From Escherichia phage Ecwhy_1, in the sequence record MH791411.1: 64,000 bases of DNA; one strand, 5' to 3'. Made by a program: the position numbers and the translations under genes. Within the stretch, counting starts at the first letter, position 1; each line of letters begins with the position of its first letter. This document shows, piece by piece, positions 15,430 to 16,639 of the stretch. The notes below the pieces were generated by a model. It saw only the letters and a program-made list of their open reading frames with translations. It did not search any database and was not told where the DNA came from.

Positions 15430-15458
15430 ATTTTATCAGTACTGAACTATTTAGTCAA
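15430..15458 (-). promoter_or_regulatory. promoter cassette TTGACT-aaatagttcagtactga-TAAAAT
   Basis: Same 17-nt spacer as the cassettes at 16190 and 16611; predicted start site coincides with the 5' end of tRNA-Ser at 15423. Confidence 0.5.
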
Positions 15459-15826
15459 GGACTATTTTCGGAAAAAACCTTCTCCAACACTTTAAATATC
15501 ACAGAATTTAATTCATGTGGAAACACATTTTCATATACTGTGCGTTTCTGAAATTCATCAGCTTCATCAGCACTAAGCTGGAAGGTAATGTATTGAGCAT
15601 TTATACTATTTATTATATCACGTAAAGTGTTATTTGTCCTTTTTATTTCTTCAAATGATTCAAAAACAATTTCATCGTCATTTATAAGAAATGATTCGCC
15701 ATATCCATTGAAAATGCGAATTCCAGGATTATCTTGACACCAGTTATTGGTATGGTCGGTCGTTAATTCTGAATTCAAAAATGATTTAAGAAACTCTTCA
15801 TACTTTGAAATGTCTTTAACACTCAT
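15455..15826 (-). CDS. F-Q-x-S motif family protein (DEADEFQKRTV)
   Basis: Six-frame ORF, 123 aa. Confidence 0.5.
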   Translation of the reverse strand: MSVKDISKYEEFLKSFLNSELTTDHTNNWCQDNPGIRIFNGYGESFLINDDEIVFESFEEIKRTNNTLRDIINSINAQYITFQLSADEADEFQKRTVYENVFPHELNSVIFKVLEKVFSENSP

Positions 15827-16189
15827 ATCACCAACTTTAATTAAAAAAAATGGATGGTGACGCTTTTAAACGCCGCTGTTAATTCAGCTTTATAACCACC
15901 CGTTTTAACTTGCCTTTCGGCTACCTTGACGTGGGGCGTACAGGCTACTAAAAGCAACTACTGTAAACATATTTCCACGCCTTACCCTTTTAAATAAAAG
16001 TCCATCCGGTTTTCCAGTTTGGTGAAGGACTGTCACCTCTAGTTTAAACCTGCTAGTCAAGTAATAATTGCCTATCGTCCAATTATCAAACCCGTCTAGG
16101 TTAACATTCACCACTTCCTAGAGTACCAGAGATCTTGTTCTGGATTGCATCGACGTAACTTACACCATATACGTCTGATTGTGGAATTC

Positions 16190-16218
16190 ATTATATCAGT
16201 ACTGAACTATTTAGTCAA
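16190..16218 (-). promoter_or_regulatory. consensus sigma-70-type promoter TTGACT-N17-TATAAT
   Basis: Exact -35 and -10 hexamers with a 17-nt spacer on the minus strand; followed by about 340 nt without a convincing ORF, then the tRNA cluster. Confidence 0.6.
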
Positions 16219-16580
16219 GAATTAATTCGCATTTTTTTGAATTTGCCAATCAAGTACTTATAGAACTCATAAGTGAATAATGGTTCTTGTACAGTACTCG
16301 TTTGAAAATATTCTTCTTCAGTCTTTGGTACAGGGGAAGTACCTGAAACATAGGGATTATGATCTTCTTCTGCATAAGTTGAAGATGTCATAACTTCAAC
16401 ACTAATTGAACTAAGGTCTTTACGTAACGAAATGTTTAACATAACAGTTCGTTGTTCAGAAGTTTCTTCATCTTCAACCCACTGTAAGTACAATTTCATT
16501 AGTTCATCCCAATTATAAAATTGGAATTTATGTGAATCTTCAATGTTGTGTTTTATTGCTTCTTCATATTCACTAAACAT
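16215..16580 (-). CDS. F-Q-x-S motif family protein (EEEYFQTSTV)
   Basis: Six-frame ORF, 121 aa. Confidence 0.5.
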   Translation of the reverse strand: MFSEYEEAIKHNIEDSHKFQFYNWDELMKLYLQWVEDEETSEQRTVMLNISLRKDLSSISVEVMTSSTYAEEDHNPYVSGTSPVPKTEEEYFQTSTVQEPLFTYEFYKYLIGKFKKMRINS

Positions 16581-16610
16581 ATCAAGTTGCCATATAAGTT
16601 AAGATACAAA

Positions 16611-16639
16611 CATTATACAGTACTGAACTATTTAGTCAA
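16611..16639 (-). promoter_or_regulatory. consensus sigma-70-type promoter TTGACT-N17-TATAAT
   Basis: Third copy of the cagtactgaactatttagtcaag cassette, about 30 nt upstream of the gene starting at 16580. Confidence 0.55.

Follow-up and report, generated by a model that had tools for sequence, protein, structure and literature searches.

In the stretch of Escherichia phage Ecwhy_1 DNA analyzed here (64,000 nt, hereafter the window), which comes from a 121Q/RaK2-like jumbo coliphage of the genus Asteriusvirus, a predicted early promoter of the sigma-70 type is repeated three times in the tRNA region, and the evidence assembled below makes it probable that its copies are kept identical mainly by recombination and act as junctions between gene modules. 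An exact search of the 64-kb window placed the 23-mer CAGTACTGAACTATTTAGTCAAG on the plus strand at 15437-15459, 16197-16219 and 16618-16640; no further copy was present in the window with up to 3 mismatches allowed, and 100 dinucleotide-preserving shuffles produced no match, giving a chance expectation of 0. The identical 23-nt block in triplicate described in the original prediction was thus borne out by exact search; the starts given for it there (15436, 16196 and 16617) were each one base low. Read on the minus strand, all three copies also have the architecture that had been proposed for them, namely TTGACT, a 16-17-nt spacer and TATAAT or TAAAAT:

15430-15458, minus strand: cassette copy 1, with the -35 hexamer TTGACT at 15458-15453, a 17-nt spacer and the -10 hexamer TAAAAT at 15435-15430
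16190-16218, minus strand: cassette copy 2, with TTGACT at 16218-16213, a 17-nt spacer and TATAAT at 16195-16190
16612-16639, minus strand: cassette copy 3, with TTGACT at 16639-16634, a 16-nt spacer and TATAAT at 16617-16612

When the three copies were aligned with 60-nt flanks, identity extended from one base 5' of the -35 hexamer to the -10 hexamer, and the flanks themselves were unrelated to each other. The spacer of copy 1 is AAATAGTTCAGTACTGA, and an extended -10 TGn precedes the hexamer in both copies 1 and 2. The predicted start sites of copies 2 and 3 lie at approximately 16183/16182 and 16605, respectively.

The -35 hexamer matches TTGACA at 5 of 6 positions in all copies, the -10 hexamer matches TATAAT at 6 of 6 positions in copies 2 and 3 and at 5 of 6 in copy 1, and the spacers of 17, 17 and 16 bp fall within the 16-18 bp range of sigma-70 promoters. 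Across the early region, the pattern TTGACN-16..18-TANA[AC]T occurred 29 times on the minus strand, which is the gene strand, and 0 times on the plus strand, while a related promoter pattern matched 21 times (4.7 expected), with all but one of these matches (20) falling on the minus strand. This gene-strand bias, together with the retention of the cassette across Asteriusvirus and its fixed short distance to RNA 5' ends, supports the sigma-70-type assignment originally made, and this comparative evidence strongly supports a near-consensus promoter whose activity is predicted. The shared spacer is limited to the three cassette copies; the other 26 of the 29 early promoters have spacers unrelated to it. 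An A-tract lies 5' of the cassette; it is clear (ttaaaaaagtg) in RaK2 and K64-1, two phages of Klebsiella, and varies more among the Asteriusvirus copies.

We infer that RNA polymerase initiates at these cassettes with the host sigma-70 rather than with a phage sigma factor. A phage sigma-70-family factor of 322 aa (window 1662-2630; Pfam Sigma70_r2 and Sigma70_r3, no region-4 match) is encoded approximately 13 kb downstream of the cassettes on the same strand, is conserved in phages ph0011, G17 and RaK2, and could read the cassette sites. Under that explanation the entire cassette, spacer and TGn included, would be the recognition sequence of the phage factor and would define a distinct class of stable-RNA promoters, with which the TGn of copies 1 and 2 agrees. 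However, the cassette and the other 26 early promoters, with their free spacers, have hexamers equally near to the E. coli consensus, a factor lacking a recognizable region 4 would not require a conserved TTGACT, and in the related jumbo phage CBB the RpoD-like promoters found in this region were interpreted as early and host-read (PMC5259590). We regard dedicated recognition by the phage factor as quite improbable, and the copies are treated below as early promoters read by host sigma-70.

Each copy would then stand at the head of a small module of transcription within the tRNA region. The genes involved are as follows:

15334-15423, minus strand: tRNA-Ser(GCU), for which ARAGORN and Infernal agree on a 5' end at 15423 (58.9 bits)
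16215-16580, minus strand: ORF of 121 aa downstream of copy 3, with no Pfam match
15455-15826, minus strand: ORF of 123 aa between the M2 terminator and copy 1
15995-16187, minus strand: non-coding RNA M1, approximately 190 nt, a hairpin chain ending in a pseudoknot
15844-15985, minus strand: non-coding RNA M2, approximately 140 nt, a branched stem GGGUGG...CCAUCC followed by U8

Copy 1 would transcribe tRNA-Ser(GCU) from a start at or beside the first base of the tRNA. That base, A at 15423, is the 7th base past the -10 hexamer, so the predicted transcript has no or almost no 5' leader; the claim that copy 1 starts at the 5' end of this tRNA therefore holds for the position, on which both programs agree, with the start itself being predicted. 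A leaderless tRNA-Ser that begins at the transcription start would need no RNase P cleavage and would in this be unusual among the tRNAs of bacterial viruses. Copy 3 would drive the 121-aa ORF, the ATG of which is 31 nt downstream. A small gene downstream of copy 3 had been predicted and is present, but neither Pfam nor BLASTP at E<0.01 supported its assignment to an F-Q-x-S family; at that BLASTP threshold the local small ORFs were linked only between 12785 and 13137 and within the MTHEEW family (16649-17135).

Downstream of copy 2, the predicted ORF-free stretch of approximately 340 nt was recovered (approximately 16183 to 15844), as it contains only mechanical, non-ATG ORFs of 38 and 69 aa. 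This stretch is in fact two structured RNAs, M1 and M2, which copy 2 would transcribe as a single RNA of approximately 340 nt ended by a terminator-like stem and U8; the 3' stem of M2 with its U8 looks like an intrinsic terminator. The pseudoknot of M1 is formed between the GUCC loop of a GGUGA/UCACC hairpin and GGAC at 16003-16000. In an alignment of 7 M1 sequences, 95.2% of cells were paired compared to 21-42% in slid controls, with 11 double-change pairs compared to 0-2, and 0 of 500 shuffles attained the observed value. With 11 sequences, the 3' domain was 96.5% paired against 22-41% in controls, with 10 double-change pairs against 0-2, and the pseudoknot was 100% paired with 2 of its 4 pairs covarying. 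This covariation supports the view that a genuine RNA gene follows copy 2. Homologues of M1 reside inside the tRNA clusters of T4-like, T5-like, Stephanstirmvirinae and jumbo phages, amounting to at least 6 phage lineages, and M2 has a cassette promoter of its own in RaK2, K64-1 and JNE01. Rfam 15 assigned the copy 2 stretch to no family (the highest scores were 14.1 bits for P31, where the cut-off is 40, and 12.5 bits for HIV-1_SL3, where it is 33), and an 8-kb Rfam scan returned nothing at E<1 except tRNAs. The M1 RNA was not described in the literature searched, though it may be among the 10,006 candidate structured RNAs of PMC10690425. M1 is a further lead, a pseudoknotted RNA of approximately 190 nt that recurs in phage tRNA clusters and has no Rfam entry.

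The evidence that the cassettes are junctions came from a table of the flanks of 29 cassette copies in 8 genomes, in which 120-nt flanks were clustered at 75% identity. The upstream flank U2, which is the 3' end of ORF 16215-16580, was joined to any of five downstream types (D2, D4, D6, D7 or D9), with D6 being the M1 module truncated after 44 nt in G17. Similarly, upstream flank U3, the 3' end of ORF 15455-15826, was joined to D3 or D5, and in relatives this places it before two different tRNA-Ser genes. In the reverse direction, downstream flank D2 was joined to U2, U4, U6 or U8, and D5 to U3 or U5. The presence of one upstream flank with different downstream modules across the eight genomes identifies the copies as recombination junctions. 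Furthermore, whether the -10 hexamer reads TAAAAT or TATAAT is independent of which flanks a copy has, and this places crossovers inside the cassette itself. These mosaic junctions are observed directly in the genomes, and we infer homologous recombination as the process behind them; because the copies are breakpoints of module exchange, recombination in the form of concerted evolution is the best-supported reason for their identity. Copies would recombine with each other and with those in co-infecting relatives, and would in this way stay homogeneous within a lineage while serving as joints where modules of tRNAs, RNAs and small ORFs are gained, lost and swapped. HNH homing endonuclease genes adjoin some copies in ph0011 and JNE01, and endonuclease-driven gene conversion could contribute to the mosaicism. 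Concerted evolution alone leaves unexplained why this promoter, and not the other 26, was repeated.

The boundaries of the modules are compact. The TGA stop of ORF 15455-15826 lies inside the -35 hexamer of copy 1 and that of ORF 16215-16580 inside the -35 hexamer of copy 2. At these two of the three copies, the TGA within TTGACT closes the preceding ORF, so that the cassette provides the stop of one module along with the promoter of the next. A terminator scan found no stem-loop adjoining any of the three copies, and for the two ORFs that end inside a -35 hexamer there is accordingly no space for one.

The cassette is not particular to Ecwhy_1. Every Asteriusvirus checked has matches at 2-5 places, including the closest relative, vB_Ec-M-J, with 3 places in 378 kb. 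In ph0011, G17, 121Q, JNE01 and BF17, copies precede tRNA-Ser(GCU), a second tRNA-Ser, tRNA-Ser(UGA), M1, M2 and small ORFs, and all fully mapped copies are in the tRNA region, either 6-11 nt before tRNA 5' ends or preceding non-coding RNAs or small ORFs. A diverged form, aaaaaagtgTTGAACAAAAAGTTCA(G/A)TA(C/A)TGATATAAT, occurs five times in RaK2 and five times in K64-1, located 10-11 nt before the 5' ends of tRNA-Arg, tRNA-Ser and tRNA-Met, with one directly before M2. A BLAST match in Yersinia phage fHe-Yen9-04 listed as 'tRNA-Ile' is actually just past the tRNA. An IMG/VR scan with a degenerate cassette pattern returned 121Q, RaK2 and one G+C-rich chance match, and nothing else. The cassette 31-mer was absent from 5,426 complete E. 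coli genomes, and a host origin, in which the cassette would have been borrowed from E. coli, was therefore rejected. An origin as a tRNA fragment was likewise rejected: the spacer sequence TAGTTCAGT resembles a D-arm, but the remainder of the D-arm is missing, and the fHe-Yen9-04 match that had hinted at such an origin falls outside the tRNA. Neither the cassette nor the palindrome in its spacer was described in the RaK2 and CBB genome papers or in full-text literature searches.

This distribution bears upon the simplest explanation of the repeat, which is that a recent segmental duplication of a promoter plus its gene left it behind as a neutral relic, too young to have diverged. The 100% identity of the copies within the genome and the small paralogous ORF families nearby would fit such an event, but the flanks of the three copies have no similarity, their payloads (a tRNA, a non-coding RNA and an ORF) are unrelated, an identical 29-mer is kept in more than 25 genomes in which the DNA around it is only 84-87% identical, and a diverged version exists in the sister genus. 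Neutral recent duplication is already contradicted by these results, and we give it almost no weight. The suggestion that the spacer had been conserved by recent duplication in this genome consequently does not stand, as the family is genus-wide and shared with the sister genus. At the same time, the RNA modules move horizontally in their own right, with M1 being 85-92% identical in unrelated phages, and the likeness of the cassette across genera could therefore be due to transfer and not to long-term constraint.

A more serious competitor to recombination is selection on the spacer itself. According to this explanation, the conserved spacer is an operator in which a dimeric phage or host protein binds the palindrome (T)TCAGTACTGA(A) and switches the stable-RNA promoters. 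The spacers of copies 1 and 2 contain TCAGTACTGA as a perfect 10-bp palindrome, which Asteriusvirus copies carry as well, and the 8-bp CAGTACTG occurs 33 times in the window compared to 1.0 expected. Its core, AGTACT, is enriched about 7-8-fold, and in coding sequence it is found 132 times, in all three frames, compared to 30 +/- 5 after synonymous-codon shuffling, which rules out codon usage as the cause of the excess. AGTACT sites are also better conserved than control hexamers (75% versus 52%, and 71% versus 47%) and tend toward palindromic extension, with TCAGTACTGA occurring 8 times and TTCAGTACTGAA 5 times. Additionally, GTTCAGTACTG is kept in 3 of the 5 RaK2/K64-1 copies, and a promoter elsewhere in ph0011 and G17 has TCAGTACTG touching TATAAT within an otherwise unrelated spacer. 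The enrichment is seen in Asteriusvirus, Alcyoneusvirus and probably Eneladusvirus, and not in T4-like, T5-like or other phages sampled.

Several results nevertheless count against an operator. The remaining 2 of 5 copies in both RaK2 and K64-1 read GTTCAATAATG, which has no palindrome, yet they are stably retained, and conservation is just as strong in the half of the spacer outside the palindrome (AAATAGTT / AAAAAGTT). AGTACT could be rejected as a general feature of early promoters, since the other 26 strong promoters were not above its background (8 observed, of which 5 come from cassettes, versus 6.4 expected). The motif is not specific to promoters, as it is spread over the whole sequence at approximately 2.3 sites per kb, and no candidate binding protein was identified. 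We also considered whether the sites could be bound by SlmA, the consensus of which is GTGAGTACTCAC; this was rejected, with the flanking position being C in 45% and G in 10% and GAGTACTC occurring only once. The earlier suggestion of an extra binding site in the spacer thus gains indirect support from CAGTACTG being a palindrome that is selected genome-wide, and is weakened by the two of five RaK2/K64-1 copies and the other early promoters that lack it.

On balance, we consider an operator maintained by selection instead of recombination to be unlikely. We would give a similarly low weight to a combined explanation, by which an abundant, sequence-specific factor reads CAGTACTG and the stable-RNA promoters have been wired to it, with the cassette also being a portable joint; if true, the cassette would couple production of phage tRNAs and of the pseudoknotted RNA to the global state of the phage genome. 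Recombination between promoter copies acting as module junctions remains our preferred explanation, and AGTACT/CAGTACTG is a further lead in its own right as a genome-wide selected palindrome specific to this phage lineage.

Several known systems are close to these elements. The highly iterated palindrome HIP1 of cyanobacteria is GCGATCGC. Like CAGTACTG, HIP1 (mentioned in PMC6604393) is an 8-bp palindrome that is over-represented many-fold, both in genes (in all frames) and between genes; however, the two differ in sequence, and HIP1 belongs to a cyanobacterial cell whereas the AGTACT-centered palindrome belongs to a phage genome. M1 and M2 resemble T4 rnaC and rnaD (species 1 and 2) as small RNAs of stable-RNA type that lie in a tRNA cluster on the tRNA strand. 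Homology to rnaC/rnaD was rejected, as no sequence similarity is visible, and M1 differs from them in being a pseudoknotted multi-hairpin RNA with no tRNA-like T-arm that is found in several phage families.

As a promoter, the cassette matches extended -10 sigma-70 promoters (TGnTATAAT) in its hexamers and spacing, and copies 1 and 2 also match them in the TGn. Ordinary sigma-70 promoters have unrelated spacers, whereas the cassette keeps its entire spacer constant from one paralogous copy to the next and, for the most part, between two genera. In CBB, 'RpoD-like promoters with UP-like element' were predicted in the early region (PMC5259590); these share with the cassette an A-rich upstream stretch, present in many cassette copies, and a location in an early region of short hypothetical genes plus a phage sigma factor.

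The closest parallel to the proposed role is found in the promoter-early stem-loop (PeSL) cassettes of T4-type phages (Arbiol et al., 2010, PMC2839356; Comeau et al., 2014, PMC4122927). PeSLs, like the cassette, recur as closely similar early promoters of sigma-70 consensus with A/T-rich sequence upstream, and they too cluster in a hyperplastic region whose genes are small and non-essential. In each system the junctions of insertions, deletions and replacements between related phages fall within the repeated motif, with homologous recombination between copies as the proposed mechanism. Recombination between adjacent PeSLs also gives rise to excised mini-circles. PeSLs differ in having a G+C-rich stem-loop terminator alongside, whereas the cassette has none and the upstream ORFs run into its -35 hexamer; moreover, PeSLs carry only ORFans, while the cassette mostly heads genes for stable RNAs, namely tRNAs and two non-coding RNAs. 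The RaK2/121Q-like jumbo phages that carry the cassette were outside the PeSL studies, and our results would extend the idea of promoters as recombination joints from T4-type phages to this group. The joint would also be a simpler one than PeSL, in that it consists of just the promoter, lacks a stem-loop and has the stop codon of the neighboring gene within its -35 hexamer. Importantly, such joints would move tRNA and non-coding RNA genes and not orphan ORFs alone, and in doing so they offer a concrete mechanism by which the tRNA repertoires of phages may turn over rapidly.

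The cassette was present in the window as an exact triplicate. An exact search for the 23-mer CAGTACTGAACTATTTAGTCAAG located precisely three copies on the plus strand (15437-15459, 16197-16219 and 16618-16640), with no fourth match in the window when up to three mismatches were allowed, and 100 dinucleotide-preserving shuffles yielded no match to it. The original prediction of an identical block repeated three times was correct as to the repetition, with its positions one base too low. Alignment with 60-nt flanks showed the copies to be identical from one base before the -35 up to the -10 hexamer and the flanks to be unrelated. 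The minus-strand readings are as follows.

Copy 1 (block at 15437-15459), minus strand: TTGACT-AAATAGTTCAGTACTGA-TAAAAT
Copy 2 (block at 16197-16219), minus strand: TTGACT-AAATAGTTCAGTACTGA-TATAAT
Copy 3 (block at 16618-16640), minus strand: TTGACT-AAATAGTTCAGTACTG-TATAAT

In copies 1 and 2 the TGA inside TTGACT is also the stop codon of the upstream ORF; the cassette would thus close one module and supply the promoter for its successor, so that stop and promoter would both survive an exchange made there. On the basis of sequence comparison, we consider it reasonably probable that the cassette is a host-type early promoter that now serves as the standard head of small tRNA-region modules, that recombination among the copies keeps it identical, and that it acts as a joint for module exchange.

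The window DNA belongs to a RaK2/121Q-like jumbo coliphage of the genus Asteriusvirus, with vB_Ec-M-J as the closest record (98% identity across the cassette region), and 109 of its 115 mechanically called ORFs are on the minus strand. A search with TTGACN-16..18-TANA[AC]T gave 29 minus-strand sites and 0 on the plus strand, and a related promoter pattern matched 21 times (4.7 expected), with 20 of these matches falling on the minus strand. This bias and excess suggest that the cassettes lie in an early region rich in near-consensus sigma-70-type promoters, in line with predictions made for CBB, a related phage (PMC5259590). The spacers of the 26 remaining promoters were unrelated, a common spacer being found only in the three cassette copies. 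A phage sigma-70-family factor (322 aa; 1662-2630, minus strand), conserved in ph0011, G17 and RaK2, lies ~13 kb downstream of the cassettes; it matched Pfam Sigma70_r2 and Sigma70_r3, with no region-4 match in Pfam. The cassette promoters may be read by this factor instead of a host one.

For copy 1, the -10 (15430-15435) ends at 15430 and tRNA-Ser(GCU) begins at 15423, as called by both ARAGORN and Infernal, so that the first base of the tRNA, an A, is the seventh past the -10. This spacing bears out the earlier placement of the start site at the 5' end of the tRNA: the primary transcript is predicted to start at or beside the mature 5' end, with no 5' leader or almost none. The tRNA-Ser(UGA) of JNE01 shows identical spacing to its cassette -10, and the remaining cassette-headed tRNAs have predicted leaders of only ~3-5 nt. 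Copy 3 lies 31 nt upstream of the ATG of a 121-aa ORF (16215-16580) with no match in Pfam. Directly upstream of copy 3 are three tandem paralogues with overlapping stop and start codons, part of a four-member family of 54-56 aa proteins starting MTHEEWM (16649-17135 and 18470-18640, minus strand). Additionally, a weak tRNA detected by Infernal (17161-17239, minus strand; 32.6 bits) and not called by ARAGORN adjoins tRNA-Ser(UGA), where relatives have tRNA-Arg(UCU) or tRNA-Leu(UAA), and could represent a tRNA gone degenerate or one of atypical form.

Copy 2 faces a stretch of ~340 nt holding only non-ATG mechanical ORFs, in agreement with the ORF-free stretch first described there. Asteriusviruses share it at 98-99.5% identity, above its surroundings, and the Klebsiella phages RaK2 and K64-1 at 81%; it comprises two modules.

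M1, 16187-15995 (approximate), minus strand: ~190 nt, hairpin chain with a 3' pseudoknot
M1 homologues in comparison DNA: L005 2001-2187; L006, L007, L017/L025, L018, L024, L027, L028, L032
M2, ~15985-15844, minus strand: ~140 nt, Y-shaped terminal stem followed by U8
M2 relatives in comparison DNA: L004 (K64-1) 2734-2905; L010 (RaK2) 17418-17590; L012 (JNE01) 3476-3640; L019 ~1200-1260

In the proposed M1 fold, 95.2% of cells across seven sequences pair, compared with 21-42% when partners are slid, and 11 pairs have changed on both sides (0-2 in slid controls); none of 500 shuffles matched these values. The 3' domain, aligned in 11 sequences, was 96.5% paired (22-41% in controls) with 10 double-changed pairs (0-2), and its pseudoknot, in which a GGAC close to the 3' end is the partner of the GUCC loop of the last hairpin, was 100% paired through GC/AU and UA/CG exchanges. 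M1 is thus a structured RNA with a 3' pseudoknot backed by covariation. The first half of the stretch is 85-92% identical to unannotated DNA of T4-like Bragavirus and T5-like Proteus phages, where it has a tRNA gene on either side and shares their strand, and more distant copies are found within the tRNA clusters carried by Aeromonas phage 65, Klebsiella phage KP13-16, a 120-kb IMG/VR contig and metagenome contigs. M1 therefore spans jumbo, T4-like (Bragavirus, Aeromonas phage 65), T5-like (Novosibvirus) and Stephanstirmvirinae phages, and is unannotated in all of them. The terminal branched stem and U8 of M2 gave z = -3.2, and M2 is headed by its own cassette promoter in RaK2, K64-1 and JNE01. 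Neither module matched an Rfam family or the T4 stable RNAs rnaC and rnaD; taken together, these results suggest that copy 2 drives a pair of non-coding RNA genes. No description of the RNA downstream of copy 2 was found in the literature searched, although it may be among the 10,006 candidates for structured RNAs catalogued in PMC10690425. The 5' half of M2 is also present in Kuravirus phages, and K64-1 carries an M2-like paralogue between tRNA-Gly and M1 (L004 2334-2495). Elsewhere in the window, a stretch of ~260 nt with few ORFs (~14050-14317, minus strand), conserved in ph0011 and G17, opens with the 12-bp palindrome TTCAGTACTGAA and the hairpin-prone GGGGAGGTTGTGATTCCC. Downstream of it, at 14042, is a promoter matching the consensus at 12/12 positions, and the stretch may encode a further non-coding RNA.

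A 31-mer across the cassette was found in 2-5 places in every Asteriusvirus record, including three in the complete genome of vB_Ec-M-J, with weaker matches in RaK2-like Klebsiella phages. The five exact cassettes of ph0011 head two small ORFs, M1, tRNA-Ser(GCU) and a second tRNA-Ser, and G17, 121Q, JNE01, BF17 and SD-2_S15 carry similar sets in a different order. RaK2 and K64-1 have five diverged copies each, aaaaaagtgTTGAACAAAAAGTTCA(G/A)TA(C/A)TGATATAAT, located 10-11 nt before tRNA-Arg, tRNA-Ser and tRNA-Met and also directly before M2, indicative of a cassette family old enough, or mobile enough, to be common to two genera. The version differs from one genus to the other (TTGACTAAATA in Asteriusvirus vs. 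TTGAACAAAAA in RaK2/K64-1), the pattern expected if copies were homogenised within a lineage. The cassette was absent from 5,426 E. coli genomes, IMG/VR had none beyond these two genera except one chance match, and the genome papers and full-text searches covered gave no description of the cassette or of the palindrome. Upstream of gene 110 of the unrelated Thermus phage phiYS40 (L002 1502-1530), TTGACTAAATAGTTCAGTAGTGATAGGCT matches the cassette throughout the -35 and at 16 of 17 spacer positions (BLAST E = 2e-3 with the 31-mer), which could reflect coincidence or a favoured spacer. In Yersinia phage fHe-Yen9-04 (L003 1001-1024), ACTAAGTAGTTCAGTACTGAAATA directly follows tRNA-Ile, has no recognisable -35 hexamer, and precedes ~900 unannotated bases with many T-arm-like fragments and repeated GAATTCCAG / GATTCTAG.

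With a 75% identity threshold, we then clustered the 120 nt upstream (U) and downstream (D) of 29 cassette copies taken from eight genomes; the clusters found in several combinations were the following.

U2, end of the 121-aa ORF: joined to M1, a small ORF, a mini-ORF, M2 alone or a truncated M1
U3, end of a 123-aa ORF: joined to tRNA-Ser(GCU) or a different tRNA-Ser
D2, payload M1: joined to four different upstream flanks
D5, payload the second tRNA-Ser: joined to two different upstream flanks

The -10 variant was not always tied to one flank, as in U3-TAAAAT-D5 of G17 vs. U3-TATAAT-D5 of 121Q, which suggests that crossovers fall within the 29 bp of the cassette. The copies are thus mosaic junctions. 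HNH homing-endonuclease genes lie ~22 bp upstream of one cassette in ph0011 (L008 21106-21630) and JNE01 (L012 6436-6960), and by analogy with SegB in the T4 tRNA cluster (L020), gene conversion driven by these endonucleases may contribute to the turnover of modules here.

The conserved spacer had also been proposed to hold an extra binding site. Its palindrome CAGTACTG occurs 33 times in the window (1.0 expected; shuffle maximum 6), and the core AGTACT, preferentially as C-AGTACT-G, occurs at 149 sites in 64 kb, about 7-fold above composition expectation. Within called ORFs, AGTACT was found 132 times vs. 30 +/- 5 under synonymous-codon shuffling, with enrichment in all three reading frames, and CAGTACTG 27 times vs. 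1.9 +/- 1.4; the excess therefore lies at the DNA level. Conservation of AGTACT sites exceeded that of control hexamers when the window was compared with ph0011 (75% vs. 52%) and with G17 (71% vs. 47%). Over-representation was ~7-8-fold in the window, RaK2 (L010; 7.9-fold), ph0011 (L008), comparison stretch L009 and a distant part of 121Q (L033, 200-230 kb; 86 observed vs. 10 expected). The T4-like, T5-like, Kuravirus and Thermus phage DNA sampled showed no enrichment, so that among the DNA sampled it is particular to RaK2/121Q-like jumbo phages; Yersinia phage fHe-Yen9-04 is probably enriched as well. Given this excess, conservation and lineage spread, the spacer contains one instance of a lineage-specific, selected, genome-wide palindrome. 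Membership of such a set keeps in play a putative site that a factor may read, but three observations weaken that proposal: AGTACT is not above background in other early promoters, two of the five RaK2/K64-1 cassette copies are without the palindrome, and conservation is just as high in the non-palindromic half of the spacer. The consensus for SlmA is GTGAGTACTCAC; SlmA sites were rejected, as the flanking base is C, not G, and GAGTACTC occurs only once.

The promoter-early stem-loop (PeSL) cassettes known from T4-type phages each combine an early promoter of sigma-70 consensus type, repeated and A/T-rich upstream, with an adjacent stem-loop terminator, at which ORFans are inserted, deleted or replaced by recombination (PMC2839356, PMC4122927). 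The cassette resembles them as a repeated early-type promoter located at module junctions. Unlike a PeSL, it has no stem-loop that we could find, the upstream ORFs of copies 1 and 2 instead overlapping the cassette, and its payloads are mainly stable RNA genes. Given these two differences, the cassette would appear to work like a PeSL yet not to be one.
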